Assembly: GCA_031549385.1 (NCBI GenBank) | Contig: JAVBPW010000001.1 | Location: 6,142 to 38,141 of the forward strand | DNA: 32,000 nt | DNA from: Alphaproteobacteria bacterium | GTDB taxonomy: Bacteria > Pseudomonadota > Alphaproteobacteria > Rs-D84 > SZUA-605 | Direction of reading: 5' to 3' | In this document: piece by piece, positions 13,391 through 27,268 of the stretch | Layout of the letters: each line of letters opens with the position of its first letter | How positions within the stretch are numbered: position 1 is the stretch's first letter | Position numbers and translations under genes: made by a program | Notes under the pieces: generated by a model | What the model was told of the DNA's origin: nothing | What the model saw: the letters and a program-made list of their open reading frames with translations, nothing else | Database searches by the model: none

Positions 13391-13413
13391 TAGCCCTGAA
13401 TTAATCAGGGCTA
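13391..13413 (-). terminator. 9-bp hairpin between the ftsZ operon and portal (weak or partial terminator)
   Basis: TAGCCCTGA-attaa-TCAGGGCTA. On the minus strand it is followed by AAAUUAAUUUCC, a poor U-tract, so termination is probably leaky. Confidence 0.35.
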
Positions 13414-13437
13414 TTAAACGTTACAAATTCGTTAAAT

Positions 13438-13884
13438 TTATTGCTGTTGATACTTAATTAAATCTGAAATAGATTTATTTTCTTGTATATCACTTATCTT
13501 AATTCTCATTGGTTCACATTCATAACTTATCTTTGTATTTGTTATAAACTCAACTACTGGTGTTATTAATGTCATTGTTATTAAACATACTGTTATCATT
13601 ACTAAAGCACCTGCAAAATTAATTTGCTTACCACTTGCTAGCATATCAAATACCATTTTTAATATAACAAAAAATATCATTATATATGCTAACATTTTTA
13701 AAAAATCGATTAACTCTTTTACGTATTTTTGAAAACAACTGTTTGAAGTTACTACTAATGAATCTCCACTGATTACATTTTCATATCCAACAGATGTGAA
13801 ATAATTTTGCATCTCTGATAATGATACTGCAAATAAGTTACTGCATGCAAATATTATTAGAAAAATTACAAATATTTTATTCAT
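13438..13884 (-). CDS. Small membrane protein (signal/lipobox-like N-terminus plus two TM helices), function unknown
   Basis: 148 aa. The N-terminus FVIFLIIFAC resembles a lipobox, followed by two hydrophobic helices (MLAYIMIFFVILKMVF and AGALVMITVCLITMTLITPVV). The ATG overlaps the ftsZ stop (ATGAATAA), implying translational coupling. Confidence 0.5.
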   Translation of the reverse strand: MNKIFVIFLIIFACSNLFAVSLSEMQNYFTSVGYENVISGDSLVVTSNSCFQKYVKELIDFLKMLAYIMIFFVILKMVFDMLASGKQINFAGALVMITVCLITMTLITPVVEFITNTKISYECEPMRIKISDIQENKSISDLIKYQQQ

Positions 13885-15397
13885 CTTGTTCTTTTAAAAA
13901 GCTTTCAAAAGTATTTTCTTCTTCATTTAATGATGGCATGTCTTTGAATAAATCCATCAAATCATATGAAGCTGGTGTTTCTTTTTTAACTGGCTTTGGT
14001 TCTGGCCTTACTGGTCTTTCACCTTCTTCTTTAGCACCAAAGATATTTTTTAATTTACTTGAAAAAGATGCGTTTTTATCATCTGGCTTTGGTTCATTTG
14101 TTTGACCAATTGCCATTGATGAGATATCCAATGCTTGTGGGGTATCATCAAATTCTTCGATGATTACTTCATCCATTGTCATTGGAAATACTTCTTCAAT
14201 TTCTATTACTTCTTCTTGTTCTTCTTGCACTTCTTGTTCTTCTTCCAATGGAATAAATGTTTGTTCTTCATCTTCTTGAGTTGGTATCTCTTGAATTATT
14301 GTTGTTTCTGTGATTTCTATTATTCCATCTAATGGATCTAAGATTTCACCAGCTTCTTCTTGAACTGGTTTTGCTTCATCCAATATAGGTTTGATAAATT
14401 CATCAAAACTTTTATATTTGAAATCTGTATTTACTGAACCACTTAAACCTGTTGCTATTAATGTTAGGATTAATTTTCCATTTAAGCTTTTATCAAAGTT
14501 TGTTCCGAAAACAAAATTTTCTTGTGTCTTTAATTGATCCCTAACTTTTTCCATTATTCCTTTTACTTCACTTAATCTGATATCTGTACCACCAGAAATT
14601 TGAAGTAATACTTGTTTTGCTGAAACGGCACTTCCTTTGTCTATTAAATGATTTTCTAATACTTGTGAAACAGCATCTTCTACTCTGTTATCACCTGTTG
14701 TGATTGCAGAATTTACCATTATTTGACCACCATTATCTAAGATAGATTTGATGTCAGCAAAGTCTAAATTAATTTGACCTGTTGTATTTATTATGTCTGT
14801 TATTCCTTGTATACCATTTGCTATTTGCATATCTGCTGAACCAAATGCTTCTGATACTGGAATGTTATTATCAAATGCTGTGAAGAAATTTTCATTTGGT
14901 ATTATTACGTAACTTGATGTAGCTCCTGATAAATCATCCAGTGCGGAATTTGCTACTTTCTTTCTTTTTTCTCCTTCAAATGAGAATGGAAGAGTTACGA
15001 TTGATACGTTTAATACACCTGCTTGTGTTGCTGCATTTGTTAATATTGGAAGAGCTCCTGAACCTGTTCCTCCACCTAAACCGCCTACAAAAAATATTAA
15101 TGAAAAATCTTTAAAATAATCTTGAATTGCTGCAATATTTTCTATTGCACTTTGTTTTCCTATTTCTGGATTTCCACCTGTACCAAATCCTTTAGTCAAT
15201 TTTACACCAAGAGGAATCTTTGTTTCTGATAGTGAACTTTGTAAACTTTGAGAATCTGTGTTTAAGGCTACATATGTAACGCCTGATATTTTCTGCTTTA
15301 TTAGAGTGTTTAATATATTTATACCTGCACCACCTACACCTGCTATTAATATTTTTGGTGTAACATTATCTTCAAATTTAGCCCATGTATCTTGCAT
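13877..15397 (-). CDS. ftsZ: Cell division GTPase FtsZ
   Basis: GVGGAGINILN, GFGTGGNPEIG, GGLGGGTGSGALP (T4 loop), NLDFADI (T7 loop), a long acidic linker and a C-terminal FESFLKEQ resembling the conserved FtsZ tail peptide. A GGAGGG RBS is present. Confidence 0.9.
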   Translation of the reverse strand: MQDTWAKFEDNVTPKILIAGVGGAGINILNTLIKQKISGVTYVALNTDSQSLQSSLSETKIPLGVKLTKGFGTGGNPEIGKQSAIENIAAIQDYFKDFSLIFFVGGLGGGTGSGALPILTNAATQAGVLNVSIVTLPFSFEGEKRKKVANSALDDLSGATSSYVIIPNENFFTAFDNNIPVSEAFGSADMQIANGIQGITDIINTTGQINLDFADIKSILDNGGQIMVNSAITTGDNRVEDAVSQVLENHLIDKGSAVSAKQVLLQISGGTDIRLSEVKGIMEKVRDQLKTQENFVFGTNFDKSLNGKLILTLIATGLSGSVNTDFKYKSFDEFIKPILDEAKPVQEEAGEILDPLDGIIEITETTIIQEIPTQEDEEQTFIPLEEEQEVQEEQEEVIEIEEVFPMTMDEVIIEEFDDTPQALDISSMAIGQTNEPKPDDKNASFSSKLKNIFGAKEEGERPVRPEPKPVKKETPASYDLMDLFKDMPSLNEEENTFESFLKEQDE

Positions 15398-15481
15398 ATT
15401 TCCCTCCGAACTTAGTGTCCGATACTTTTTGTTTTTAAAGTATTTTCTTTAAAAATCCAGTTTTTTCCTTATTCGGTACAC

Positions 15482-15490
15482 ATTATAACA
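15482..15490 (-). promoter_or_regulatory. Candidate extended -10 promoter for ftsZ
   Basis: Minus strand reads TGtTATAAT, about 85 nt upstream of the ftsZ ATG. Confidence 0.35.
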
Positions 15491-15549
15491 TATTGTTTGT
15501 TTTTTTTATAGACTTTTTTATTTTTTTATATTACTATGCTTTAGTCATT

Positions 15550-15625
15550 GGCCAGGTAGCTCAGTTGGTAGAGCAAAGGACTGAAAATCCTTGTGTCGAC
15601 GGTTCGATTCCGCCCCTGGCCACCA
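15550..15625 (+). tRNA. tRNA-Phe (anticodon GAA), CCA encoded
   Basis: GGCCAGG-TA-GCTC-AGTTGGTA-GAGC-A-AAGGA-CTGAAAA-TCCTT-GTGTC-GACGG-TTCGATT-CCGCC-CCTGGCC-A-CCA. This is a clean cloverleaf with one A-C mismatch in the T stem (15599 with 15613). Confidence 0.95.
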
Positions 15626-15897
15626 CTTATTTTATTTTCAATAAAATCATTGTTGGAGGAGACGTTTCCTCACCTTCGGTTCGATGTCCTCGGCAAAATT
15701 GCCTGCGGGCTTCGCGTACGCATTTTAAATGCTACTTGTCGGGCCGCCCCTGGCCACTACTTATTTTATTTTCAATAAAATCATTGTTGGAGGAGACATT
15801 TCCTCACCTGCGGTTCGATGTCCTCGCAACTTTCGTTGCTTGCGGGCTTCGCGTACGCATTTTAAATGCTACTTGTCGGGCCGCCCCTGGCCACCAC
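15610..15897 (+). repeat. Tandem direct repeat: two units (15610-15743, 134 bp; 15744-15880, 137 bp) plus a terminal 17-mer, each starting with a copy of the tRNA-Phe 3' end
   Basis: CCGCCCCTGGCCAC(C/T)AC occurs at 15610, 15744 and 15881. The units are near-identical except for a swapped hairpin: GGCAaaatTGCC at 15692-15703 versus GCAACtttcGTTGC at 15826-15839. They are GC-rich relative to the surroundings. Confidence 0.9.
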
Positions 15898-15923
15898 AAA
15901 CTTGAAGTTTGACATTTTATTTT
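15897..15923 (+). terminator. Weak hairpin plus T-run ending the tRNA-repeat array
   Basis: CAAACT-tga-AGTTTG followed by ACATTTTATTTT. Confidence 0.4.
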
Positions 15924-15989
15924 AAAAAACTAAATAATTTTCCTAAATATCTAATTTTAGAATTGCTATTATTAGTTTATTTGGAAATT

Positions 15990-17165
15990 TTAATCTTCTA
16001 TGAATGGGTAGGATTTTACTGCTTCGGCTATCTTTTTTACTAATAATCTTTGATAGTCGTTTGTCTTTAATCGTTTCTCTTCTTCTCTGTTTGACATGTA
16101 TCCTAATTCAACTAATACTGATGGAATGTGAGACTTTAATACTGCAAATGGAGCGTATCTTTGATTAGTGTCTAATAATGATACACTTCTGTCCTTCTTA
16201 CATTTTTCGATTACTAACTTTGAAAAGATTATTGATTCCTCTTTTGTTTGTCGTAGTTTTAAATCACTTAACATACTTACTACTTTTTTATCATAATTTT
16301 TTGATAGTGATAAATCCATTAAGTCGGCTGCGTTTTCTCGTTCGGCTAGTCTTTGAGATTCTATGTCAGATGCTTTGTCTGATAATGTATATATAGATAA
16401 CCCCTTTGTATTTTCTTTTGGATGAGAGTCAGCATGAATTGATATAAATAAATCTGCCTTTTTCTTTCTTGCAAATTCACTTCTTTCAGCAAGCTGTAAG
16501 AAAGTATCGTTGCGACGAGTTAGATATACTTCATATCCCATGTTTTCTAATTCTCTTTCCAATAACTTTGCTGCTGATAAAGTTATTGTTTTTTCATAAG
16601 TTCCACCTTTTCCTATTGCTCCTGGATCTTTTCCACCATGACCTGCATCAACTACTATTATCTTCTTTGTATGCTTTTTCATTTTTTGATCTTGAGTTAT
16701 TATTGGAACGTTTGTAGTTTTTGGAATAACTTTTTCTTCGTCATCATCTTTATCTTTTGAACCTGATTTGCCTTTTTGAACAGTATCAAAAACTATACGA
16801 TAGTTTTTATTTGAACCTTGTGGATTTAATATAAAATGTTTTTCTATTTTTGCATCACCGTCTACATCAAGGACTACTCTGTTTATATTTGGTAATTTTC
16901 CATAACGAACATCTTTTACATAGTCTAACTTTGAACCTGAGCCATTTAACTTATAAGCTTTAGCTTGTTCTATATTTATTACTATGCGGTTATCCATATA
17001 TAAAAATGTATATTCTGGCTTGAAAGGAGTTTCTAATACAAATCTTACTCCACCCTCTGGACGTTTGCCTAATCTGTAGTCCATAGTCTCTGGTGCTCCA
17101 AATCCTTGCGAAAAGATTCCACATAAGAATAAAAAGAAAAATAATAAACCTTTTATTTTATTCAA
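15990..17165 (-). CDS. amiC: N-acetylmuramoyl-L-alanine amidase, AmiC-type (signal peptide, AMIN domain, amidase_3 domain)
   Basis: 391 aa. Signal peptide LLFFFLFLCGIFSQGFGA; AMIN-like N-domain (VRFVLE...RIVINI...RVVLDV); catalytic domain IIVVDAGHGGKDPGA...ADLFISIHADS...SVLVELGY. The start codon is TTG at 17165 and overlaps the stop of the upstream pilin-like gene. Confidence 0.85.
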   Translation of the reverse strand: MNKIKGLLFFFLFLCGIFSQGFGAPETMDYRLGKRPEGGVRFVLETPFKPEYTFLYMDNRIVINIEQAKAYKLNGSGSKLDYVKDVRYGKLPNINRVVLDVDGDAKIEKHFILNPQGSNKNYRIVFDTVQKGKSGSKDKDDDEEKVIPKTTNVPIITQDQKMKKHTKKIIVVDAGHGGKDPGAIGKGGTYEKTITLSAAKLLERELENMGYEVYLTRRNDTFLQLAERSEFARKKKADLFISIHADSHPKENTKGLSIYTLSDKASDIESQRLAERENAADLMDLSLSKNYDKKVVSMLSDLKLRQTKEESIIFSKLVIEKCKKDRSVSLLDTNQRYAPFAVLKSHIPSVLVELGYMSNREEEKRLKTNDYQRLLVKKIAEAVKSYPFIED

Positions 17166-17628
17166 ATTCTATATTCAGTATATTTACTGCCCCTTCTTGA
17201 CATTGTAAGTCTTCACTTGTTTCTGCATCTCTTCTTACTGCACTTCCGTTTAACCAAACTTCTTTTGCAGATTTCCATTCTGAAAGTCCATAGAATATAC
17301 AATCAGCTTGGGATAATTCTTCATAGGAAATTATAAAACCTTGACCACCTTCTGATGGACGAACTATAAATTCTTTTCCATATGCATTTCTGTTGTTTCT
17401 TAATGCTCCATATCTTTGTAAGTAAGATATAGTCAATAAACCGTAATCTGATTTTCCTTGGAATAATGTCTTTATGTTTTCTGATAAATCTTCAACTTCA
17501 TTTATTGTAGACATTCTTGTTAATTTTTCACGTGATCTTGTGTACATTGAAACAGCACCGATTGTTAATATTCCTACAATTGCGATAACGGCCAAAGTTT
17601 CCAACATTGTTCTTCCTGATTGTCTCAT
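17158..17628 (-). CDS. Type IV pilin-like (prepilin-type N-terminus) protein
   Basis: MRQSG/RTMLETLAVIAIVGILTIGAV has Gly at -1, Glu at +5 and a hydrophobic alpha1-N helix. Two C-terminal Cys (C..FY and LQC) are consistent with a D-region disulfide. The +1 residue is Arg instead of Phe/Met. An AAGGAG RBS is present. Confidence 0.7.
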   Translation of the reverse strand: MRQSGRTMLETLAVIAIVGILTIGAVSMYTRSREKLTRMSTINEVEDLSENIKTLFQGKSDYGLLTISYLQRYGALRNNRNAYGKEFIVRPSEGGQGFIISYEELSQADCIFYGLSEWKSAKEVWLNGSAVRRDAETSEDLQCQEGAVNILNIEFE

Positions 17629-17668
17629 TTTGTGCTCCTTGGTAAAATATCTTTGATTTTGTTAAAAG

Positions 17669-17677
17669 ATTATAGCA
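17669..17677 (-). promoter_or_regulatory. Candidate extended -10 promoter for the pilin-amiC pair
   Basis: Minus strand reads TGcTATAAT, about 40 nt upstream of the pilin ATG and immediately after the TerL stop. Confidence 0.4.
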
Positions 17678-17693
17678 TAAAAATTATTTTATT

Positions 17694-18551
17694 TCAAATA
17701 TTGAAATTAGTTTTTGCTTGATAAAATGCTTTTTTTTCATTTGAATTTATAATTACTTTTCTTGATAAACTTCCAAAGTTTGATTCTAAGCCTGTTGCTA
17801 TTGCATCTATACAATCATCTTTATTATTTTGACGCTCTATTTTGAAAGATTCTAATTCTTCAACTAACACTGAAGTAGTCAGATTTGCTTTTATATAAAA
17901 ATATGATGAATATAAAAGTGGTTGAATGTTTCTTATTATTCTCTCATTCTTGTTTTGTGTTTGGACTACCTTCTTTATAAATATAGGATAATTCATAGTT
18001 TTTGCTGTTTGAATTATCATCTCTGATAAGAATGCACCTATTCCATTTGTTTCAATTACTAAGTTGAATAAATTGTTCTTTTTCATAAAAATTATTACCT
18101 CTTCACACTGATACTGCGCAGATGAATTTTCATCTTCTTTATTTAAACATTTCAAATCATTTATATAACAATTACTTTGATCATCTTTGAATATTGCTAC
18201 TACTATACTTTTATCACTTGTTGCTTTACCTAATGATGGATCCCATGATACACATCCGAAAGTTAAATTTCGACCATCCAAAAAATATTTTTGTATTCCA
18301 TTACTTTGAAATAACTCCACATCTTTGTTGTATACATTTATTAGTGAAGTATCAAAAAAAATATTGTCCGTTTCTGGGACAATAAGCAACATTTGTGAAT
18401 TAAATTTTAATGGACCTGAACGATGTGCTATTTCTTTACATTTTTTAGGTGAAAATCGTTCTGGCCAAACTGAATTTCCTTTTTCATCAAAAAGCGGTAT
18501 TTTTAATATTTCAAACCCTTCTAAGAAAGGTGGAGATTTTGAAACTAACAT
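17694..18551 (-). CDS. Terminase large subunit, C-terminal (nuclease) half as a separate ORF
   Basis: 285 aa beginning ...IPLFDEKGNSVWPERFS..IAHRSGPLKFNSQMLL, then VSWDPSLGKATSDKS (first acidic nuclease motif region) and NKDDCIDA near the end. It has its own AAGGA RBS and ATG, with a TAA directly upstream in frame. Confidence 0.8.
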   Translation of the reverse strand: MLVSKSPPFLEGFEILKIPLFDEKGNSVWPERFSPKKCKEIAHRSGPLKFNSQMLLIVPETDNIFFDTSLINVYNKDVELFQSNGIQKYFLDGRNLTFGCVSWDPSLGKATSDKSIVVAIFKDDQSNCYINDLKCLNKEDENSSAQYQCEEVIIFMKKNNLFNLVIETNGIGAFLSEMIIQTAKTMNYPIFIKKVVQTQNKNERIIRNIQPLLYSSYFYIKANLTTSVLVEELESFKIERQNNKDDCIDAIATGLESNFGSLSRKVIINSNEKKAFYQAKTNFNI

Positions 18552-18787
18552 TTATTTCCTTATTTTTGCGAATCCAAAATGCTTTATCAACCTTTTAAAA
18601 GGCAACTTATCTTTGTTTGAAATTTCAATGATTTATAAAAAAAAGAACCCGGGGCAACTTTTTTATAGGAGAGGAGGAAGGAGAAAAAGAGAATGCCTCG
18701 GGATTTTTTATATAGACTCGGAGCCTATACGGTTCACACTTTAAACACCTGATTCTAAATTGTCAAGCATAAAGTTTTCTTTAGTAT
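18552..18787 (-). other. 236-bp non-coding insert splitting TerL, carrying a promoter-like element and a long hairpin
   Basis: Stops occur in all minus-strand frames. TTGACA-N17-TAAAGT lies on the minus strand (18766-18738). An extended hairpin at 18648-18702 (CCCGGGGCA...TGCCTCGGG plus an inner T/A-run stem) has an apical loop that is CUCCUUCCUCCUCUCCU on the minus strand and GGAGAGGAGGAAGGAG on the plus strand. T-runs flank it on both sides. Confidence 0.6.
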
Positions 18788-19420
18788 TTATTTATTTGCA
18801 TATATTGTGTCATAAGTGTGTGGAGTACCTATATAAAGCTGTAAACCATTGGGATTCAATATAAAATCTAGTTCTGATAGAAATTGGCGAAGATTTTCTC
18901 TTTTTTCCGAATTATCGCTGTTTTTTGGCACTTCGCAGTCATCACATATTATTATATCAGCCCTGTAACCCGTTATATTTCCCATTACTGATGCTGAAAT
19001 TACAGATGGATCTCTTAATTCTTTAGTTCTTTCAACTGTAAAACAGTCTGAAGCCCATTGCTCTTTCTTTAATGGGACTAAATTTTGGGTTAAAGGATGC
19101 TTTTGTATAATATGTTTTATATTTCGTACCATTTTTGTTGCCAAATTTTGTTCACATGACAAGATTAATATGACTAAATTTGGATTTTTATATAAAATCC
19201 ATGCACAAAATAAACCAACTATTGATGACTTGCCTGAATTTCGAAAAGCCATCAATAATCCCTTTTTAGTTTGTGATGTGTGTATTTTTTCCAACCAAAA
19301 TGCTATTTGTTTATGATGATTTGGGGTTTTGAATTCGTTTTGTTTGTTAAATATATCTATAAATTCATAAAAATTTACTTTGATTGCTTGATTAGATATT
19401 TCCGTAATCTTCGCTTTCAT
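18788..19420 (-). CDS. Terminase large subunit, N-terminal (ATPase) half as a separate ORF
   Basis: 210 aa with Walker A-like AFRNSGKSS, Walker B ADIIICDD, and an end at LYIGTPHTYDTIYANK, where an uninterrupted TerL would run on into the nuclease domain. The ATG lies inside the 3' end of the fibre-like gene (29-nt overlap). Confidence 0.85.
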   Translation of the reverse strand: MKAKITEISNQAIKVNFYEFIDIFNKQNEFKTPNHHKQIAFWLEKIHTSQTKKGLLMAFRNSGKSSIVGLFCAWILYKNPNLVILILSCEQNLATKMVRNIKHIIQKHPLTQNLVPLKKEQWASDCFTVERTKELRDPSVISASVMGNITGYRADIIICDDCEVPKNSDNSEKRENLRQFLSELDFILNPNGLQLYIGTPHTYDTIYANK

Positions 19421-20054
19421 TGTAAGCTTCCATGATAGTTCCTAAATCTTGAGAAAGTTCAGGAAATTTTGCTTTTAATAAATCAATCATATTTACTACC
19501 AAACCATAACAACTTCCATCGTTTGAATTATTTAACAACTTTTTCATATCTTCAAATATTATTTTTATATCTTCATATGTTTTTTCAGCTGATAAACTTT
19601 CATCAAGGAAATCAATTTCTGAATTTACTAATCGTTTTGCTGTTTCATCCCAGACTATTGCTTTTTTTGCTTCTGCTTGAGGAAGAGTTGTTTTTATTTC
19701 ACCTTTTTCTGGATCATATTTAATACATTTCTTTAGCTCCTCATTTGTCTGTCTTATTAATTCAACTATGTAATCCATATCTAGATTTAAATCTTGAGCA
19801 GATATTACCCCATATTCTTGTAAATCTGTTTGGCGAACTATTTTTAAATTCCTTTTTATAACTATTTTACTATTTAATGCTGGTGGAATGGAAAATATTA
19901 TTTGCCCATAATCATCACTGAGCTCTGTATGGTAACCACCCTCTTGCTTTAATCCATTTATATAAATTTCTAAATTTTCTGGTTTAAAAACTTTAAAGTT
20001 AAATGAAAATTCTGTTGTTGTACCATTTGCTTTATATGTTACTTGATTATCCAT
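19392..20054 (-). CDS. Tail fibre protein, T7 gp17 N-terminal adaptor-domain-like, short
   Basis: 220 aa. VTYKANGTTTEFSFNFKVFKPENLEIYINGL....Y......G.IIF..P......I.IKR.....R.TDLQEYGVISAQDLNLDMD parallels the T7 gp17 N-terminus (LTYQLDGSNRDFNIPFEY...VVVTLIG...IELRRVT...VDFTDGSILRAYDLNV). A GGAGG RBS is present. Confidence 0.75.
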   Translation of the reverse strand: MDNQVTYKANGTTTEFSFNFKVFKPENLEIYINGLKQEGGYHTELSDDYGQIIFSIPPALNSKIVIKRNLKIVRQTDLQEYGVISAQDLNLDMDYIVELIRQTNEELKKCIKYDPEKGEIKTTLPQAEAKKAIVWDETAKRLVNSEIDFLDESLSAEKTYEDIKIIFEDMKKLLNNSNDGSCYGLVVNMIDLLKAKFPELSQDLGTIMEAYNESEDYGNI

Positions 20055-20544
20055 TTGTACCTCCGCTGATTATTGTAGTTGTGCTTTTTGTTGTCTTTGG
20101 CATTGCTGAACTTACTGTTGTTACTGTACTGCCTACTCCAGAAATTAGATTTCTTCTTTTTGACATTAAATTCTTTGATAATGTGTTATCTAAATCTCTT
20201 GTCAAATTTTTTGAACTTGCTTCATAGTCTTGTTGATTACTATATTGTCTTTTAGCAGATTCTTCTTTTATATTACTTAACACTGCTGATGAAGATTCTG
20301 AATCTATTTCAATTTGATTAGCTCCAAATCTTGCACTTTGTTCTGCTAATGTTCTTTTTAATAATGAATTTTCTGTTTCTTGTTGCTCCTTATAATTTCT
20401 GTCCAAAGCTTCTTTTTTAATCTCATAATCTTCCATTATTGTTTTCTTTTGTTTTTTATTTTCATCTGCATTTAAGGCTTGATCTATACCTTTAAATATT
20501 AAATCAAATCCTGTTGCTGCTACCGTTGCTGCTGCTGTTGCCAT
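20047..20544 (-). CDS. Hypothetical virion-associated protein (coiled-coil, Ser/Thr-rich tail)
   Basis: 165 aa with an AAGGAGG RBS. It occupies the position of the T7 gp13-16 internal proteins but is far smaller. I recognise no motif. Confidence 0.4.
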   Translation of the reverse strand: MATAAATVAATGFDLIFKGIDQALNADENKKQKKTIMEDYEIKKEALDRNYKEQQETENSLLKRTLAEQSARFGANQIEIDSESSSAVLSNIKEESAKRQYSNQQDYEASSKNLTRDLDNTLSKNLMSKRRNLISGVGSTVTTVSSAMPKTTKSTTTIISGGTNG

Positions 20545-20556
20545 TTAAAACCTCCT

Positions 20557-22446
20557 TTAAGATAGTGCTTTAATTTTTAGTGAAATACTTTGCATACAAA
20601 ATTTAAATGGTGCATCACTTTGTATTTTCCAAAGTGGAGTGTTTCCATTTGTTTTATATCCAAATGATGACATTACATAATTACCTGTGAATTCTGTTAA
20701 ACCTTTTCCATAACTACGTTGCTCCAGTTGTAATTTGTTTAATCCAAATCCTGTGTCTATTTCTAATATTGCTGATTCTTCTAATCTTATTGATAATTCT
20801 ATTAGTCTGTACTTTTTGTAACCACCGCCTGATAACTTAGTAAATGGAAATGGAACAATCGTATGTTTATATGGATAGCCTATACAATAACTTGAAACAG
20901 GTTCGTTTAAAATCATTGTACTTTCTTCTATTTTCTTTTTTGAATATATAAAATCATCAACTTTAATATAAATTTCTTCTCCTAAATATTCACTTAATTC
21001 ATAAATACCTGTTATACTTTGTTCTTTTGAATGTTCGTATTTTGCACAATCTAAATATAAATCGTCTTCAAATTTTTCCAGATAAAAGTTTTCATTTCTT
21101 TTAGTTATTACATAGGTATTATTATCTAATGTTGTTGAATATAAAAACTTCCCATATGTTTGATAGTTACTCCAAGATAAAACTTGATTCTGAGGAGATA
21201 CTGTTAATACTGCCATTTCTCCATTTGATAAAACTACATACAATTGTCTTTTAGACTTATTATAAGTCATATCAGTTGGATCTTTTATTAAATGTGAACA
21301 AAGTTGCGATAGATTGTTTGATGTATAATTTGCTACCACTTGTCCATATACAAATTCTCTGATTTCTTTTTTGTCTTTTGATACAAAAATTGTTGCTGAT
21401 TCTATTTGTAACACTGGTAAAAATCTCTCTGTTGGACTTCCTATTGCTGTTTGCTTCGATAAAGATACTGTTGATGGTGTTATCAAATTTGTTGGAACTA
21501 TCCATTCACCACTGTATGTTAAAATTTGTAAATGAAGGGCTGAAAATATTGTCTGAATTTCTTCCATACCTGAAGATAGGAGACAGAATTCTATTGCTTC
21601 ATCATCTAACCCTTGTCCGCAATCAAAGTTTCCATATGTAAAAGTTTTTGAAAACCATAACTTATTTGGCTGAGTTGGAGTTGCTCCAAAAACTAAACGA
21701 CCTTGATGAAAACATGAAGTTTTTGGATACCCTCTTGTATCAGAAAAAGCAGCCTCTTTGTATGAACCTTGAGCAATATTTTTAAATTGCTTTAAGACCT
21801 GAATGTTTGCTTTTACTAAAGAAATTATACTTATAATTTTAAAAGAACCTTCGTTAAATATAAATTCTTTATTAATCATGTCTGATGTAAAAAAATCTAC
21901 ATTAGATGTTATTGTTGTTGCCCCTGTTATTCCAGCCGGTGTAAATAAAACACTCTTTTTATCATCAAATTTATAATAAGGGTAAAGACTTGTTCCGTAT
22001 GTGTCTTGAGCGAACACAAAATTCTTAAACACAAAACCATAAGTTTTTTCATAGGTCAAAACTTTTGGATGGTGGTTTTGATGAGTGAAAATCATTTCTG
22101 ATAAATTCTGAGATGTTTGTATTTGATCGATTTCACTTTCTTTATATGGAGTTTCTAAAATATCAAATAACGCATCGTCTTTGTATAAATACATTAGACC
22201 TGGAAGTAATACTATTAGATAATTATCATTACTTTTTAATGTAAAACTGAATAATTTTCCCTTTTGTGGAAGTTTATGGACTAGTTTTAATCCGCCTCTT
22301 CTTTTTATTGCTCCACTCTCTGTTGTGTGAGCATTTTGTAAAACTGATACCCCGTTTGAATGTGCTGCTAAATCAGCACGAGATGTGTAACTTTGAGCAA
22401 GTTCTCCATTTAAGAAAGAGTTTTGTGTGTGTGTAAATATTGTCAT
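20557..22446 (-). CDS. Tail tubular protein B-like (T7 gp12-like)
   Basis: The track start (22452) is TTG. The ATG at 22446 lies 6 nt after AAGGAG. The N-terminus NSFLNGELAQ....RADL.....G...L.N......G.IKRRGG follows the pattern of the gp12 N-terminus (KNLKGGISQQPD..RYPDQ....NG........GLQKRPP). Its position after gp11-like also fits. Confidence 0.6.
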   Translation of the reverse strand: MTIFTHTQNSFLNGELAQSYTSRADLAAHSNGVSVLQNAHTTESGAIKRRGGLKLVHKLPQKGKLFSFTLKSNDNYLIVLLPGLMYLYKDDALFDILETPYKESEIDQIQTSQNLSEMIFTHQNHHPKVLTYEKTYGFVFKNFVFAQDTYGTSLYPYYKFDDKKSVLFTPAGITGATTITSNVDFFTSDMINKEFIFNEGSFKIISIISLVKANIQVLKQFKNIAQGSYKEAAFSDTRGYPKTSCFHQGRLVFGATPTQPNKLWFSKTFTYGNFDCGQGLDDEAIEFCLLSSGMEEIQTIFSALHLQILTYSGEWIVPTNLITPSTVSLSKQTAIGSPTERFLPVLQIESATIFVSKDKKEIREFVYGQVVANYTSNNLSQLCSHLIKDPTDMTYNKSKRQLYVVLSNGEMAVLTVSPQNQVLSWSNYQTYGKFLYSTTLDNNTYVITKRNENFYLEKFEDDLYLDCAKYEHSKEQSITGIYELSEYLGEEIYIKVDDFIYSKKKIEESTMILNEPVSSYCIGYPYKHTIVPFPFTKLSGGGYKKYRLIELSIRLEESAILEIDTGFGLNKLQLEQRSYGKGLTEFTGNYVMSSFGYKTNGNTPLWKIQSDAPFKFCMQSISLKIKALS

Positions 22447-22456
22447 TGCCAACTCC

Positions 22457-22858
22457 TTAATATAAAAATAGTGTTTGTGGTAAGTTTGTGTAATTGCTTC
22501 GAAGATCGAGATGTATAAATGTTTTTGCTATACCAACTGAAAAGCCTAAATTAAGTGCACACCTTATTAGCTTTGCATTTAAAATCCCGTTTTGTTTTGC
22601 TATATCAATTGCACAAGTTGCTAAATTTTGCTTTTCATCAAAAATGTGAAAACTGTTTTTTACTCCACCTATTTCTTGATTATAAGATAAACTTCTGCAA
22701 CATGAATTAACAATCATAGGATGTCCATAAAGCAATCTTAATTCTTTTAATTTTTCTGCAAAACTACAAGCTAGTATTCCGTCTTTTGATTTTTTACATT
22801 GAAGTTCCTTTATGGAAAAGAGAACTTTTCCATTGTCGTCTTTTATATCTTGTAACAT
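22457..22858 (-). CDS. Peptidase M15-family cell wall peptidase (endolysin-type)
   Basis: 133 aa. SCCRSLSYNQEIGGVKNSFH...CAIDI...FIHLDLR fits the M15A pattern (S.YRS...N...GG...S.H ... A.D ... H.D zinc ligands). Confidence 0.75.
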   Translation of the reverse strand: MLQDIKDDNGKVLFSIKELQCKKSKDGILACSFAEKLKELRLLYGHPMIVNSCCRSLSYNQEIGGVKNSFHIFDEKQNLATCAIDIAKQNGILNAKLIRCALNLGFSVGIAKTFIHLDLRSNYTNLPQTLFLY

Positions 22859-22859
22859 A

Positions 22860-23429
22860 TTAACCTCGGCAGTCTATTAATGAGAATTTAGTTATTTTTT
22901 CTGGGGTCTTTTGTTGAGCGTCTATTAGTTTTGCTAATCTTTCTTGGCTTATACAAACTTGGTTTAAGTAACTTGATTTTGCATGGTCTTCTGTTAATGG
23001 AAGACAAAATTCATAAGATAAAAAATCCACTAATAAATTTATGAAAAATGGAGGCATTTGACTTTCGTCAATATCCTGAATCACTTTTATTGTTACTATG
23101 TCTGAGTTTGCATAAAGTCGGTCTTTCATTATTTTATATGAAATGTCTGAAAAATTATCCCCTGCCCCACATGAAATTATCCTTAAAATATTTTTAGGTA
23201 ATAAATAGGTATATGAATAACCTTGAATTGCAGGTTCATCTAATGATGCTGGTTGAATTAAATTGCAAGCAAATGTCCATGGGTATGATGAAAGCAATTT
23301 TTGTTTTACTATTTTATAAAAAGATTTTGAAATTTTAGCTTCTGCTGTGTTTTGATTAAAATTTGATATTGTATTTGCACCTATTTTAAGCAATGCCATA
23401 GAGCAAATATCTATGTTTGTGTAATTCAT
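22860..23429 (-). CDS. Tail tubular protein A-like (T7 gp11-like)
   Basis: 189 aa, against 196 aa for T7 gp11. DICSMALLKIGANTISNFNQNTAEAKISKSFYKIVKQKLLSSYPWTFA parallels gp11 [46 protein letters not shown]. Confidence 0.7.
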   Translation of the reverse strand: MNYTNIDICSMALLKIGANTISNFNQNTAEAKISKSFYKIVKQKLLSSYPWTFACNLIQPASLDEPAIQGYSYTYLLPKNILRIISCGAGDNFSDISYKIMKDRLYANSDIVTIKVIQDIDESQMPPFFINLLVDFLSYEFCLPLTEDHAKSSYLNQVCISQERLAKLIDAQQKTPEKITKFSLIDCRG

Positions 23430-23452
23430 TAGAAATACTCCTTTTAAAGTTT

Positions 23453-23475
23453 AAAGGGGGCAAAAAGCCCCCTTT
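23453..23475 (-). terminator. Strong GC hairpin after the capsid and 76-aa genes (probable partial terminator)
   Basis: AAAGGGGGC-aaaaa-GCCCCCTTT, a 9-bp stem, is the most GC-rich hairpin inside the cluster. It sits between the 76-aa ORF and the gp11-like gene. Confidence 0.5.
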
Positions 23476-23477
23476 TA

Positions 23478-23708
23478 TTACATTGCTACTAATGTTACTG
23501 CTGTGTCAGTTACTGCTGAAACTGCTGCAATTACACTTTGATCACTTGCATTGATGAAAATAAAATCATTAGCATTAATTACTTTTGACATGTCTGCAAA
23601 ATATGTAGATGCCATTGTTACTGCTTTTGTATCTGTTGTTTTATAGTGCCACAATGTGAAGCCATTTGCATAGGCTAGTACGCTTAAATTGTTTGTTTTA
23701 AAAGCCAT
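23478..23708 (-). CDS. Small hypothetical phage protein downstream of the capsid gene
   Basis: 76 aa with an AAGGAG RBS and tight spacing after the capsid gene. I recognise no motif. Confidence 0.4.
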   Translation of the reverse strand: MAFKTNNLSVLAYANGFTLWHYKTTDTKAVTMASTYFADMSKVINANDFIFINASDQSVIAAVSAVTDTAVTLVAM

Positions 23709-23719
23709 AGTATTCTCCT

Positions 23720-24553
23720 TTATGCTACTATTGCTGCGTCATCTTTGCAGCTGATTTTTACTATTCCACTTTCGTCAATTACACATGAACCTTGGCTCAT
23801 TGAGTTTGATATGAAATGTGATTGGCGATCGCCTTGCCATGAAATGTCAGATTTTACTTCTGAACCTACAGCATGACCTATTGCTGTTTTATGATAAATA
23901 AAGCATTGGCGATTTCCTGAAATTAATGGAAGATTGTTGTGTAAAATCCAAATTACTCCCATCCATTTTCTTGCTTCACTTCCATTTATTAATGCATAGT
24001 TTTCACCACAATATTCTGATGAAGTGAATTCTTTAATGCTTAATAGTTCTGACCATTGATGAACACCTACTACACCAAATCTTTGACCGTCGTCTGGACA
24101 TGAAAGTTCATTCAATTTTTCAATTGCTTTCATAATCTTTTCTTTTGTTAGACCTTTTGTGTCCGCTGCTACTTCATTTGTTGCTTTTGAAAGTGCACTA
24201 ATGATTAATTCATCTGTTTTTCTTCCTAATGCATATGCTCCAGCTGAAGCTATTACTTTTCTTTCGTCTGTGTTTGTTTTTAATTCATCCATAGCATCGC
24301 ACCAATCGCCTGCATAAAAATCTTGCAAAACACATTCTATTGGTGTGTGTTGAATGTTCATTGTTGGAACTAACCCATGACGAGATTTTGTTGATGCTGT
24401 GCCTTTGCCTACTCTTTGGAATGTAGTTGAAGAACCTTTTACATCATTTTTTACTCGCACAGTGTTGCGTAGTTTTGTTCCGTATTGTTGATATTGCAAA
24501 TGTACATCTGCTTCAAATTGTTTGATAAATGCTTGATCTATTGTTAAAGACAT
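23720..24553 (-). CDS. Major capsid protein
   Basis: 277 aa, positioned after the scaffold gene. The N-terminal pattern F..QFEADVHLQYQQ.GTKLRNTVRVKN.V.GSSTTFQRVGKGTASTKSRHG is one I recognise from podovirus and prophage capsid proteins. An AAGGAG RBS is present. Confidence 0.7.
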   Translation of the reverse strand: MSLTIDQAFIKQFEADVHLQYQQYGTKLRNTVRVKNDVKGSSTTFQRVGKGTASTKSRHGLVPTMNIQHTPIECVLQDFYAGDWCDAMDELKTNTDERKVIASAGAYALGRKTDELIISALSKATNEVAADTKGLTKEKIMKAIEKLNELSCPDDGQRFGVVGVHQWSELLSIKEFTSSEYCGENYALINGSEARKWMGVIWILHNNLPLISGNRQCFIYHKTAIGHAVGSEVKSDISWQGDRQSHFISNSMSQGSCVIDESGIVKISCKDDAAIVA

Positions 24554-24642
24554 TCTTATTCTCCTTTAATTAATTATTTAATTGTCGACTTTATACCGGA
24601 GGGTGAGTCTTTATTTATTGTTATCCTTGCGGGCAATAGTTT

Positions 24643-25272
24643 TTATTTGTATAGTTTTTCAAATCCTTCTTTTACCTTTTGGCAAAATTCCGGATCATTT
24701 TCTTTCCAATATTTTGGATTATTCATTAGCTTCTTTAGTGAATCTAATGTTAATTGTTTTGATGGGGATGATGTTTCGTCTAAGATTTTAGGCTCTGATG
24801 AATTCAACATCTTATATAGTAATAATACTCCGTCATATGATGAAGCAAGAACTTCATATAAATCTTGAGATAGATTATTGTCTGCATATGTTTGAATTTG
24901 AGATGCTACTTTTTCCCAATTTTCTTGTCCACCAAAATAATTTTTTAAATTTTGTAATTGTGTTTGTTGTTTTAAATCAAATTCTGTTTCTTGTATCTTT
25001 GTATTTAAATTCTGATTCAAAATATCATGAACACATTTTGCTTGTGATTTTGTAAATTTATTTTCAAATAGTTTCTTACCTATAGCTTCATCTTGAAAAT
25101 CTAGTTCATATTCACTTGGGTCTTGAGGTAAATCTAAATTTATTTCTTCTTGATTTGATGTGCTTAGCTTTTTTTCTAAATCTTTATATGATTTCAATAA
25201 ATTTTTTGCGTTTAGTTGACCTGTTTCTTTATCCAAAAATTTTTCTGGTATCTTTATTTCTTGATCTGTCAT
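24643..25272 (-). CDS. Capsid scaffolding / assembly protein
   Basis: 209 aa, acidic and helical. The N-terminus IPEKFLDKETGQLNAKNLLKSYKDLEKKL is typical of phage scaffold proteins, and the gene sits immediately upstream of the capsid gene. Confidence 0.6.
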   Translation of the reverse strand: MTDQEIKIPEKFLDKETGQLNAKNLLKSYKDLEKKLSTSNQEEINLDLPQDPSEYELDFQDEAIGKKLFENKFTKSQAKCVHDILNQNLNTKIQETEFDLKQQTQLQNLKNYFGGQENWEKVASQIQTYADNNLSQDLYEVLASSYDGVLLLYKMLNSSEPKILDETSSPSKQLTLDSLKKLMNNPKYWKENDPEFCQKVKEGFEKLYK

Positions 25273-25280
25273 AATTGCTC

Positions 25281-25466
25281 CTATTTTAAATTTTCATCAA
25301 TAGATTTTCTTAAGAAAACTATCGAAAATAATGGGAAGATTGTGGAAAATAAATTAGCTAAATCTAAATCTCCTAATAAATATCCTGAGACTGCTGAAAT
25401 AATTCCTGTGATTGATACAAGGTATGTTTTTTTACCTTTTAACATTCCACCGTTTAATAAATTCAT
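25281..25466 (-). CDS. Holin-like small membrane protein (two TM segments)
   Basis: 61 aa with two hydrophobic stretches (YLVSITGIISAVSGYLLG and LFSTIFPLFSIVFL) and a charged C-terminus. It is adjacent to a cell wall hydrolase. Confidence 0.45.
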   Translation of the reverse strand: MNLLNGGMLKGKKTYLVSITGIISAVSGYLLGDLDLANLFSTIFPLFSIVFLRKSIDENLK

Positions 25467-25476
25467 TTTAATTCCT

Positions 25477-25938
25477 TTATATTTTGTAAAATAAATATTG
25501 TTTTATTTGAGTTTGGTAACCTTTTCCTTCTGCGAGTTCTGGAAATTCGTCTTCGTGATGGTAAAAAGTAGATCCAAAGGTTGTATCCTTTAAAATTCCT
25601 CGTAGCACTTTACCGGCTAGCCTTGAACATATTGCAAATTCAGGATTGGTTATTGTGGTACCTGGAAGTTTATTTTTTAATTTTTGATAAAAGTTTTCAT
25701 CTAAACAAATTGAGTCTATGGTTTTATTAGCATGATTTGAATTTTTAATTCTGTTTGCTATTGTGCATGCTATTGCTTCTTTTAAAATTAATGAAAGACC
25801 ATAAGATTCATGATATATGGTAAAGGCTAGTATAAATTGTTGGTGTTCTTTCTTTTGACAATCTTGAAGTAATATATCTTTATATTCTTTGGTTGCATTT
25901 GATTTTGTGAAATCACAAAATTTTAAACTATTTAACAT
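25477..25938 (-). CDS. SleB-like cell wall hydrolase
   Basis: 153 aa. AFTIYHESYGLS...EAIACTIANRIKN resembles the Hydrolase_2 (SleB) core motif (..Ea..e...g..AVa.vi.NR). Confidence 0.55.
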   Translation of the reverse strand: MLNSLKFCDFTKSNATKEYKDILLQDCQKKEHQQFILAFTIYHESYGLSLILKEAIACTIANRIKNSNHANKTIDSICLDENFYQKLKNKLPGTTITNPEFAICSRLAGKVLRGILKDTTFGSTFYHHEDEFPELAEGKGYQTQIKQYLFYKI

Positions 25939-26218
25939 TATACTTCCTTTTTTCTAATTTTTCTTCTATACGCAATAAATGATTTGTTAGACGAGTTTCA
26001 AGATCTCTAATGTAAGAAACCGAACAATAGGACATTGCTACTTCAAGCTTGTATGAAGATAAATCTTCGGCAAGCTTTATAACATTTGCCTTTGCTTCGT
26101 CTTTTAATTGATTTAAATCGTTTTGAGTTTGCCTTGAATGGGATCTTAGTAAAAAAAATAAGCCTGTTAGTGCAGGCAATTCTATTACTTGTATCCACCA
26201 AAAATAGCTAAATTCCAT
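25928..26218 (-). CDS. Phage membrane protein (N-terminal TM plus coiled coil), first gene of the cluster
   Basis: 96 aa. A TM helix (WWIQVIELPALTGLFFLL) is followed by a coiled-coil region. There is an 11-nt overlap with the hydrolase gene. A holin, antiholin or spanin-type role is possible. Confidence 0.4.
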   Translation of the reverse strand: MEFSYFWWIQVIELPALTGLFFLLRSHSRQTQNDLNQLKDEAKANVIKLAEDLSSYKLEVAMSYCSVSYIRDLETRLTNHLLRIEEKLEKRKYNVK

Positions 26219-26240
26219 TAGTACCCCCTGAGTTTAGATG

Positions 26241-26270
26241 AAAAAAGCCCAAAACCTTTCGATTTTGGGC
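26241..26270 (-). terminator. Intrinsic terminator between the cluster promoter and the first cluster gene
   Basis: Minus strand reads GCCCAAAA-ucgaaagg-UUUUGGGC followed by UUUUUU (26246-26241). The U-tract exists only in the minus-strand reading. It ends 22 nt before the ATG at 26218. Confidence 0.75.
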
Positions 26271-26279
26271 AAAAAAAGA

Positions 26280-26344
26280 GGAGACCGAAGTCTCCATAAA
26301 AGTGAGAACCGAAGTTCTCATAAAGTGAAGTCCGAAGACTTCAT
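26280..26344 (-). promoter_or_regulatory. Three tandem C(UUCG)G hairpins in the 5' leader of the cluster
   Basis: Minus strand reads AUGAAGUC-UUCG-GACUUCAC (26344-26325), AUGAGAAC-UUCG-GUUCUCAC (26321-26302) and GGAGAC-UUCG-GUCUCC (26295-26280). The stems differ but stay paired, while loop and flanks are conserved. Confidence 0.7.
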
Positions 26345-26381
26345 AATTTCTTAGGAAATAGTTTTCCCTTGAAGACTTATC

Positions 26382-26410
26382 AGTATATAGAACTTTTTCA
26401 TAAAAGTCAA
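26382..26410 (-). promoter_or_regulatory. Sigma-70-type promoter facing the phage-like cluster
   Basis: Minus strand reads TTGACT (26410-26405), 17 nt, then TATACT (26387-26382). Confidence 0.55.
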
Positions 26411-26581
26411 CTACAAATTTGAAATTTTATACATTGTTTTTTAATTTACAACAAAATACTCTCTAAATACAATCTCTTAAATTTGTATAATTTTTTTCAA
26501 AAAGTGGACTAATTTTTCATTTTTAGACTAAATATTATAATATTTTGTAATTTTGCGATTCGTAAAGTTTTCATTATTTAC

Positions 26582-26609
26582 TTGCATTTTTGGTTTTGGA
26601 CTGTACTAT
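26582..26609 (+). promoter_or_regulatory. Candidate promoter for mlaC-tkt
   Basis: TTGCAT, 16 nt, then TACTAT, about 25 nt upstream of the GAGGAG RBS. An alternative extended -10 (TGTATAAT) lies at 26484-26491. Confidence 0.35.
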
Positions 26610-26632
26610 TTAACCCATAAGAGGAGAGAGAT

Positions 26633-27268
26633 ATGTTGAAAAAAATTTTGTTTGCATTAGTTTGCGCAGTTATAGGAACATCTTATGCCCAACTTAGCGA
26701 GGCAGATAATAAAGCAGCAGTTGATAAGATGAAAGCTTTAGTTACTGATGTAGAAGATAAAATTTTAAAACGAGATATCCCTCAAGATGAGAAAAATAAG
26801 CACTTTGATGAAATTCTTGTTTCCCAAATGGATTTGGAAAAGGTTTCATCATTTATTGTTGGAAAACCATGGAAAGAAGCAAATTCTGCTGATAAGGACA
26901 AATTTTTAAAATCTTTCAGACATTTTCAAATTTTAAGATTTAAAGAAACTTTTAATTCTTACTCTGATGAAGTTATTGAAGTTGGGGGTACTTTACCTTC
27001 TTCTTCTAAAAATCAATTGTTTGTTGAAATGCAAATTAAGTCAAAAAGTAAACAAGGTGAGCCTATTGATATTAAATGGAAAATGGCAAAAGAAAATAAT
27101 GGAGATTTCAAAATTACTGATGTTGTGATTGAAGGAGTTTCTATGGCTGCTTCTTTAAAGCAAGAATATTCTGCTATTTTAAATAACGCTACAGGCAATA
27201 AGCTTGAATATCTTGCAAAAAAAATAGATGCTAAAGCAAAAGAATTTGAAAAGCCTAAAAAGAAATAA
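26633..27268 (+). CDS. mlaC: Phospholipid-binding periplasmic protein MlaC/Ttg2D family
   Basis: 211 aa with signal peptide KKILFALVCAVIGTSYA. SSFIVGKPWK....DKDKFLKSFR and WKM....G.FKITDVVIEGVSMAASLKQEY parallel E. coli MlaC (W...Q.[23 protein letters not shown]). Confidence 0.75.
   Translation: MLKKILFALVCAVIGTSYAQLSEADNKAAVDKMKALVTDVEDKILKRDIPQDEKNKHFDEILVSQMDLEKVSSFIVGKPWKEANSADKDKFLKSFRHFQILRFKETFNSYSDEVIEVGGTLPSSSKNQLFVEMQIKSKSKQGEPIDIKWKMAKENNGDFKITDVVIEGVSMAASLKQEYSAILNNATGNKLEYLAKKIDAKAKEFEKPKKK

Follow-up and report, generated by a model that had tools for sequence, protein, structure and literature searches.

What governs the transcription of phage-derived particle and lysis genes that lie among the housekeeping genes of a bacterium? 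This question is raised by a 32,000-nt stretch of DNA (i.e., the window) from an alphaproteobacterial genome with a G+C content of 31% (assembly GCA_031549385.1, contig JAVBPW010000001.1, positions 6,142 to 38,141), in which a cluster of podovirus-type genes is preceded on the minus strand by a 166-nt leader. A preliminary description of the leader had listed a promoter (TTGACT-N17-TATACT), three cUUCGg hairpins (H1 to H3), an intrinsic terminator (T4), a ribosome-binding site (RBS), and the ATG of the first gene (g1) at 26218, and we found every one of these elements at its position on the minus strand (Table 1). Its account of a near-consensus promoter parted from the first gene of a phage-derived operon by hairpins and a strong terminator therefore stands. 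The leader probably controls a structural and lysis operon that derives from a T7-type podovirus and looks domesticated. We give roughly even chances to a specific form of this control (i.e., a promoter that fires constitutively but is followed by four intrinsic terminators in series, which only a terminator-resistant polymerase would pass).

Hairpins and terminator-like signals of the leader

The promoter matches the consensus at 10 of 12 positions, with a 17-nt spacer, and is among the best promoter-like sites of the minus strand across 15.5 kb. From the usual distance of ~7 nt to the -10 hexamer, we infer a transcription start at about 26376 to 26378. The C(UUCG)G hairpins are as previously described except for the lengths of their stems: the outer A.C of H1 and H2 is unpaired, which leaves 7 bp and not more, and the stem of H3 has 6 bp. 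A fifth, weaker hairpin (H0), additional to those listed earlier, contains an 11-mer (GGGAAAACTAT; 26368 to 26358) that includes a -10-like NANNNT element (AACTAT). H1 has the tail CUUUAU (4 U in 8 nt; borderline as a terminator) and is at best a weak terminator-like signal, H2 has the tail CUUUUAU, and H3, which is followed by UCU7, has the form of an intrinsic terminator. Both H2 and H3 passed a plain terminator scan, defined by a G+C-containing stem of at least 5 bp, a loop of 3 to 8 nt, and a U-tract beginning within 2 nt. T4, followed by U6 at 26246 to 26241, is the strongest terminator-like site across 15.5 kb. A terminator scan of 1.2 kb (25800 to 27000) returned six sites versus 0.4 expected, with H2, H3, and T4 listed on the minus strand. 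Under a relaxed criterion, the leader holds four terminator-like hairpins versus 0.4 in shuffled sequences, and none of 100 shuffles reached four. Only 22 nt separate the U-tract of T4 from the ATG, which leaves no room for a promoter, and a promoter scan found no promoter-like site within the leader; all transcripts of g1 must therefore cross the hairpins and T4.

The minimum free energy (MFE) of the leader is -52.3 kcal/mol, compared with -34.1 +/- 3.4 kcal/mol in dinucleotide shuffles (z = -5.4; matched by none of 200 shuffles). Every hairpin folds locally in the full leader, the stems of H1, H2, H3, and T4 having pairing probabilities of ~0.7 to 0.9 or more (at least 0.9 for T4), and T4 and the other hairpins are intact in the MFE structure, in the centroid, and in all cotranscriptional prefixes; the folding check that had been proposed thus returned independent local hairpins. 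Prefix folding of the leader revealed no structure that competes with T4. The lack of a competing fold argues against a riboswitch or a classical attenuator, since the terminator forms by default, and it makes trans-acting control of the antitermination type the natural reading.

The three UUCG hairpins are the sole ones of their kind in the 32 kb. The motif CTTCGG occurs seven times in the window (both strands), and three of these occurrences lie within 52 nt on one strand. The spacing of 23 to 24 nt reported for the hairpins was recovered by Tandem Repeats Finder as the period of the H1-to-H3 units. It had also been claimed that the stems differ yet pair and that the loop and flanks are conserved, which an alignment of the three units bears out: 20 of 21 stem cells are paired, 4 of 7 stem pairs are changed on both sides, and 10 of 26 columns vary, 9 of them among the 14 stem columns and 1 among the 12 loop and flank columns (hypergeometric P of ~0.005 by our own arithmetic). 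This level of pairing and covariation was reached by 5 of 500 shuffles, and registers slid along the alignment dropped to 24 to 57% paired. Pair counts alone cannot show that the element acts as RNA, because palindromic DNA would yield equal counts. Our case for an RNA-level element rests on a conserved asymmetric center of the hairpins (read as UUCG on the minus strand and as CGAA on the plus strand) between arms that vary, and on T-tracts confined to the minus strand. The same conserved asymmetric center and varying arms led us to reject a reading of the palindromes as DNA operators. A leader peptide was rejected by inspection, as the ATGs ahead of the hairpins open only short open reading frames (ORFs) without an RBS. 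The leader matched no Rfam family at the gathering score (the best match, driven by the terminator, had 30.2 bits versus 50), and a DNA similarity search against phages returned no match.

Gene orders and leaders of related clusters

Members of the g1 family occur in the genomes of at least 575 alphaproteobacterial species and in ~150 IMG/VR contigs, in two gene orders, namely, a common order A (Rhodospirillales and others) and order B, which is that of the window. Order A starts with a divergent S24 LexA/CI-like repressor gene, p125, small ORFs, and the portal, Bbp19, scaffold, and capsid genes and ends with further structural genes, TerL, g1, and Hydrolase_2, followed by host genes (in one case, a GTA_holin_3TM-like gene follows Hydrolase_2). 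The order-A element spans ~18 kb, and no replication or integration genes were seen in it. In nine Azospirillum species, Niveispirillum, and Ferrovibrio, it adjoins the genes for DUF952, dihydroorotate dehydrogenase (pyrD), and an EAL protein, and the same three genes adjoin it in one metagenome-assembled genome (MAG) labeled Magnetospirillum; these shared flanking host genes argue for long vertical inheritance of the order-A element. Of 114 distinct order-A loci, 44 have a strict terminator in the interval from TerL to g1, compared with 5% of control windows. The order-A regulatory region, as seen in positions 1 to 1200 of locus L293 and in ~20 other loci, is an AT-rich promoter island with GTTC-N7-GTTC or GAAC-N4-GTTC, the former being the Caulobacter SOS box (PMC9578287). 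The first order-A gene, p125, encodes 125 to 150 amino acids (aa) with AEEAWFWF...RPCEP...HYG motifs, has no sequence match in Pfam, PHROG, or PDB, and is absent from the window; its five-helix model (pLDDT, 84.5) has no structural match in PDB or BFVD and none to Q21. As the first gene of order A, p125 is the obvious candidate regulator of the g1-cluster family.

Order B was also found in loci L001, L002/L007, L009, L011, L044, L068, L078, L081, L116, and L164, which have low or moderate G+C content; it begins with g1, and the host genes upstream are unrelated. We take the genome of the window to be a Rickettsiales MAG; the next-closest relative of g1 is annotated as Rickettsiales. When L001 was compared with L287 (same metagenome and same MAG lineage; 64 to 75% protein identity), mlaC did not adjoin the cluster, and the mlaC neighborhood of the L001 lineage did not contain the cluster. 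Since mlaC is separate in this relative, the element occupies different chromosomal sites in two related Rickettsiales, whereas its site is fixed in the Azospirillaceae. The cluster (11578 to 26218; our loci L003 to L163 and L293 to L369) looks like an undescribed podovirus-type element resembling gene transfer agents (GTAs). Our searches of the literature on Rickettsiales and other Alphaproteobacteria yielded RcGTA-type elements only; an Azospirillum GTA is mentioned in PMC3245306, with a reference to Boyer et al. 2008.

Eight loci combine order B with enough upstream DNA for comparison (i.e., the window, L002, L009, L011, L044, L068, L078, and L081). All eight carry TTGAY-N17-TAnnnT 123 to 296 nt upstream of g1, and a promoter-anchored dyad of a T-run and an A-run in the promoter spacer is common to their leaders. 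The spacer dyad of the window may be a protein-binding site or a by-product of the promoter elements and an AT-rich spacer. An 11-mer (nG[GT]An[AT]AnTnT) lies 13 to 15 nt past the -10 hexamer in all eight leaders, the versions outside the window being GGGATAAGTGT, TGGAATAGTAT, or CGTAGAAGTAT; its last six bases fit NANNNT with the A and T invariant in 8 of 8, but this motif is low in information and self-derived. The composite pattern of promoter and 11-mer has one unrelated chance match in the window itself. In six of the eight leaders, the GGR of the 11-mer and a YCC downstream of it make up the stem of a small hairpin. The leaders hold 4, 3, 2, 2, 2, 1, 1, and 3 signals composed of a hairpin and a U-tract, compared with 0.14 to 0.40 in shuffles, and the stem sequences are unrelated between loci. 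Thus, the antitermination-type architecture proposed in the preliminary description recurs in all 7 other order-B loci with enough upstream DNA and has precedents in the GTAs of Bartonella (BaGTA) and Caulobacter (CcGTA). The put- or boxB-like identity that it had given to the hairpins finds no support, given their U-tracts, their UUCG loops, the lack of an Rfam family at the gathering score, and their absence from homologous leaders: none of the seven others contains the UUCG trio, contrary to the expectation that homologous loci would carry the array.

In the closest relative (L001; g1 75% identical), ATCCCG-CUUUGU-CGGGAU followed by U8 occupies the position of T4 with an unrelated stem, and elsewhere (e.g., L079) a UUCG loop occurs in an ordinary terminator upstream of g1. 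Short contigs limit the comparison of the trio across species: upstream of g1, the contig of L001 stops after 68 nt, that of L116 after 42 nt, and those of L164/L165 after 10 nt. That four independent contigs from AT-rich relatives should stop within the leader or at its edge may be due to a repeat elsewhere in those genomes, to difficult assembly of hairpin arrays, or (for L116) to trimming of a provirus. A metagenome scan returned only a relative with 47% identity.

A perfect GTTC-N7-GTTC abuts the -35 hexamer in three gut or rumen alphaproteobacteria, i.e., L009 (3838 to 3853), L011 (3836 to 3851), and L068 (3776 to 3791). The match is 7 of 8 positions in L081 and 4 of 8 at the same place in the window; compared with 8 of 8 in the relatives, the latter led us to reject an SOS box on the window promoter, which looks like an orthologue of the relatives' promoters without this box. 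In L011, L068, and L081, a gene for a 166-aa OmpR-type winged-helix protein, its receiver domain degenerate, ends ~40 nt before the promoter; it was set aside, being lineage specific and not present in the window.

The downstream operon and its surroundings

The gene content of the cluster is that of a T7-like podovirus module for virion structure and lysis. A lysis-like trio headed by g1 is followed by the genes for the scaffold, the capsid (PF19821; E = 9e-73), a 76-aa protein, tail tubular A, an M15 peptidase, tail tubular B, a 165-aa protein, and a fiber N-terminal domain and by a large terminase split in two ORFs (Table 1). The nearest phage relatives of the capsid are those of Pelagibacter and Vibrio podoviruses, and a protein search with g1 against phages returned no match. 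No ORF of the window matched an integrase, a replication gene, or an antiterminator family, in agreement with the earlier remark that no Q- or N-like gene is evident. A terminator-like hairpin (GCCUG-CACUAA-CAGGC, then UUAU8) lies inside g1 at 26152 to 26177 on the minus strand, 41 nt into the coding region; at the same codons, L001 has a weaker CCC...GGG hairpin with UCUUUUU, made of different nucleotides. This intragenic hairpin is possibly a fifth stop signal or possibly a by-product of Leu/Phe codons.

Table 1. Features of the leader, the operon, and the neighboring genes
Feature	Position	Strand	Remarks
-35 hexamer, TTGACT	26410-26405	minus	sequence reading and promoter scan
Spacer dyad, ACTTTT-ATGA-AAAAGT	26392-26407	minus	6-bp palindrome found
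-10 hexamer, TATACT	26387-26382	minus	sequence reading and promoter scan
H0, GGGAAA-ACUA-UUUCCU	26368-26353	minus	-4.8 kcal/mol; between promoter and H1
H1, UGAAGUC-UUCG-GACUUCA	26343-26326 (with tail to 26321)	minus	7-bp stem; -8.5 kcal/mol
H2, UGAGAAC-UUCG-GUUCUCA	26320-26303 (with tail to 26297)	minus	7-bp stem; -8.5 kcal/mol
H3, GGAGAC-UUCG-GUCUCC	26295-26280 (with tail to 26271)	minus	6-bp stem; -9.9 kcal/mol
T4, GCCCAAAAUC-GAAA-GGUUUUGGGC	26270-26247	minus	10-bp stem, cGAAAg loop; -14.4 kcal/mol
RBS, GGGGG	26228-26224	minus	sequence reading
ATG of g1	26218-26216	minus	sequence reading and ORF call
g1, 96 aa, phrog_29007	25928-26218	minus	N-terminal membrane helix and coiled coil
Hydrolase_2 gene (cell-wall hydrolase)	25938-25477	minus	second of lysis-like trio
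61-aa membrane protein	25466-25281	minus	third of lysis-like trio
Rest of transcription unit	17694-25272	minus	scaffold to split large terminase
TerL N-terminal ATPase ORF	19420-18788	minus	split terminase
TerL C-terminal nuclease ORF	18551-17694	minus	split terminase; own RBS
Type-IV-pilin-like protein	17628-17158	minus	between terminase and portal
AMIN-Amidase_3 amidase (amiC)	17165-15990	minus	between terminase and portal
tRNA-Phe	15550-15625	plus	between terminase and portal
FtsZ	15397-13877	minus	between terminase and portal
148-aa membrane protein	13884-13438	minus	between terminase and portal

The minus strand of the unit from 17694 to 25272 contains no strong terminator-like site except in an insert in the terminase gene. 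This insert, a 237-nt gap between the two terminase ORFs (18552 to 18787, minus strand), carries TTGACA-N17-TAAAGT and the hairpin CCCGAGGC...GCCCCGGG followed by UUCU8, with a CU-rich loop (CUCCUUCCUCCUCUCC) that is anti-Shine-Dalgarno-like. The split recurs in the AT-rich relative L116, where the insert has 407 nt and a like design (9052 to 9457; a promoter-like site, two hairpins with CU-rich loops, and a terminator with a GCAA loop), and TerL is single and uninterrupted in all GC-rich relatives. Rfam returned nothing for the insert, which could be an embedded small RNA (sRNA) gene or an internal promoter/terminator module. The split of the terminase makes even particle production uncertain.

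Host genes (4.3 kb, including ftsZ) part the terminase from the portal gene (PF12236) and the Bbp19-like gene alongside it (13357 to 11578). A 9-bp hairpin (TAGCCCUGA-UUAAU-UCAGGGCUA; 13413 to 13391) without a good U-tract lies 35 nt ahead of the portal start. The claim that the leader is the switch of the whole cluster was therefore too broad: the portal and Bbp19-like genes are cut off from it by these host genes, among them a tRNA-Phe on the opposite strand, so that the portal sub-locus is outside its control, and the terminase insert has promoter- and terminator-like sites of its own. The remaining window contains housekeeping genes (dnaJ, thyA, an AddA-like helicase gene, mlaC, a transketolase gene, and others).

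Explanations of the leader and known systems

If the promoter is gated by a terminator cascade, a near-consensus and probably constitutive sigma-70 promoter would fire, and the polymerase would then meet four fast-folding tetraloop hairpins with U-tracts that lengthen from U3 through U4 to U7, with U6 at the last. By default, transcription would stop as short RNAs of ~60 to 135 nt, leaving the lysis and virion genes silent. A trans-acting processive antiterminator of the Q, GafZ, or BrrG kind (or a functional analogue), encoded outside the window, would convert the polymerase to read-through, probably after loading near the promoter at the spacer dyad and the 11-mer/H0. The UUCG hairpins would serve as extra terminators or pause hairpins and not as the antiterminator element; they would have arisen by tandem duplication, their divergent stems keeping the copies from mispairing. 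The UUCG and GNRA tetraloops would give short stems the fast and stable folding needed for termination at 31% G+C. The U-tract-flanked UUCG hairpins may also bind a protein.

Several points weigh against such a cascade. No antiterminator gene is found among the ORFs of the window, and the candidate regulator p125 has neither similarity to Q21 nor a structural match and is missing from the window. The short U-tracts of H1 and H2 may terminate poorly. Variation focused on stems, with a near-invariant loop and flanks, is also expected from sequence-specific recognition. The 11-mer and the dyad were recognized in the very sequences that define them, and a degenerate scan of viral contigs for promoter and 11-mer returned, among the matches listed, unrelated loci and noise only. 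The SOS box in L009, L011, and L068 suggests that repression rather than antitermination may be the main switch there. All of the evidence is computational.

The last of these genomic observations bears on an account that we consider unlikely, in which the cascade is a constitutive attenuator or insulator that keeps the output of the promoter low and fixed and stops stray antisense transcription, with any on/off control elsewhere (e.g., a repressor at the dyad). Relatives that join a like leader with an SOS box indicate that repression can occur alongside terminators, H1 and H2 are weak, the promoter spacer contains a dyad, and no factor is present in the window. However, T4 (-14.4 kcal/mol, U6) and H3 (U7) in series should allow very little read-through, a lysis-first operon is unlikely to be constitutively on, and both gene orders, also in distant genomes, retain a terminator before g1 even where this terminator is internal to the cluster, which fits regulated read-through better than simple damping. 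The complete promoter-to-terminator unit and its highly stable modular fold would also suit an independent gene for a stable sRNA of ~105 to 135 nt acting in trans, its position being incidental or the RNA being a by-product like lambda 6S RNA, and there are weak, terminator-driven, subthreshold Rfam matches to sRNA families. We regard such a gene as very unlikely: no Rfam family reaches its gathering score (best, 30.2 versus 50 bits), homologous leaders have no conserved sRNA sequence, the unpaired segments, short and rich in U, offer no obvious seed, and g1 has no other promoter, so that the unit is not independent of the operon.

Two further accounts assign the hairpins a positive role. As in the protein-binding alternative of the preliminary description, they could be tandem sites for an RNA-binding antiterminator or Nus complex, a nut-like array with UUAUG as the 5' flank, C(A/U)CUUU as the 3' flank, and a boxA-like CUCUUU, which would carry the polymerase through T4. 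The near-invariant loop and flanks, the stems that differ yet pair (9 of 10 variable columns), the regular spacing of 23 to 24 nt, and the 3' flanks with CACUUU or CUCUUU, which we take to resemble the boxA core GCUCUUU, are consistent with such an array, and antitermination in CcGTA does use NusA, NusG, and NusE (PMC11150451). We find it rather improbable, since no such array occurs in homologous leaders, UUCG is not the GNRA-like boxB loop and also occurs in ordinary terminators upstream of g1 (e.g., L079), and the window has no N-like gene; moreover, the conserved flanks are at the same time plain U-tracts, the three units are of recent duplication, and H3 with U7 is a canonical terminator, which would be odd for a positive element. 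A bolder version, to which we likewise attach a rather low probability, is that a host factor or the polymerase itself reads the triplicated cUUCGg array specifically and so decides between termination and read-through; the SOS box would have been lost and control moved to RNA, making the array a new kind of antitermination signal and the gate of an undescribed podovirus-type GTA-like element of Rickettsiales. The remaining account, that the nascent hairpins bind the polymerase directly and confer protein-free resistance to terminators as in HK022, would fit stem-loops between promoter and terminator with no factor gene in sight. It is highly improbable, as a constitutive cis-acting antiterminator before its own terminator gives no switch, a U-tract follows each hairpin, and the structure is absent from all relatives examined and has no Rfam match. 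The put RNAs are two long, irregular stem-loops, unlike three tetraloop hairpins of 6 to 7 bp.

The proposed terminator cascade has its classical counterpart in lambda PR'-tR', which comprises the PR' promoter, a promoter-proximal pause element, the tR' terminator, and the Q antiterminator. Like it, the window has a strong predicted sigma-70-type promoter directly ahead of lysis and virion genes, one or more intrinsic terminators in the leader, which would yield a short abortive RNA, a candidate -10-like NANNNT element early in the transcribed region, and a spacer that may contain a binding site; it differs in having no Q gene by the promoter or elsewhere in the window and four tandem hairpin/U-tract signals rather than one. 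UUCG loops are overrepresented in bacterial terminators, and with tandem tetraloop terminators the hairpins share short G+C-containing stems, cUUCGg/cGAAAg closure, and U-tracts. Those of the window differ in being at the 5' end of an operon rather than the 3' end and in forming three paralogous copies with conserved flanks at a spacing of 23 to 24 nt. The nut site of lambda combines a boxB hairpin with a GNRA-like purine loop, a preceding boxA, and the N protein. As in lambda N/nut and HK022 put, RNA hairpins lie in a phage leader ahead of terminators. Unlike in N/nut, the loops are UUCG rather than of the GNRA type, the sequence ahead of the hairpins lacks a boxA consensus (a partial CUCUUU follows H3), and the window has no N-like ORF; unlike those of put, the hairpins are simple, perfect, triplicated, U-tract-flanked, and not conserved in relatives.

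The nearest parallels come from GTAs, with which the cluster shares its structural and lysis genes only, its lack of a replication or integration module, and its location amid host genes. BaGTA has TTGACA-N17-TATCAT, a -10-like NANNNT, and a leader terminator overridden by the Q21-like BrrG, which is encoded elsewhere; this leader architecture has been experimentally shown to work by antitermination, and the NANNNT element is used for sigma-dependent pausing in BaGTA and lambdoid phages (bioRxiv 10.1101/2024.11.20.624540). The window resembles BaGTA P_bgtA-K in being an alphaproteobacterial phage-derived cluster with a near-consensus promoter, a -10-like NANNNT (a candidate element in the window), and a terminator in a noncoding leader before the capsid operon, with the antiterminator gene at a different locus (BrrG there; a proposed factor outside the window here). 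However, the BaGTA leader has 864 nt and a weak L-shaped terminator, compared with ~160 nt and four compact tetraloop hairpins, the T7-like virion module of the window is unrelated, and no BrrG-like protein was identified in the window. In CcGTA, GafZ acts by antitermination with NusA, NusG, and NusE, with a binding element between the -35 and -10 hexamers and a terminator after the first gene (PMC11150451). Both clusters consist of ~14 kb of structural and lysis genes only and have a factor-binding element (putative in the window) between -35 and -10, and the bypass of terminators needed there is proposed here. Differences are that the CcGTA promoter needs GafY and IHF, whereas that of the window looks constitutive, that the terminators of the window precede the first gene, and that CcGTA makes an RcGTA-type (HK97/siphovirus-like) particle.

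The logic of promoter and terminator is already known, but its terminator-cascade version and the element that hosts it appear to be undescribed. If the proposed mechanism is true, a third, structurally unrelated (T7-like) family of alphaproteobacterial particle clusters would share the logic of the Caulobacter and Bartonella GTAs, i.e., a strong promoter held by terminators and freed by a terminator-resistant polymerase. With its four separable hairpins in a compact 160 nt, the leader would be an unusually clean substrate for determining how many terminators a polymerase can ignore, and it would be useful for finding the responsible factor in organisms that cannot be cultured. Within the family, two control layouts would exist, with an S24 repressor and an SOS-type box in most relatives versus a promoter and a terminator cascade in the gene order of the window, which would make the family a useful case for the evolution of control in domesticated phage modules.

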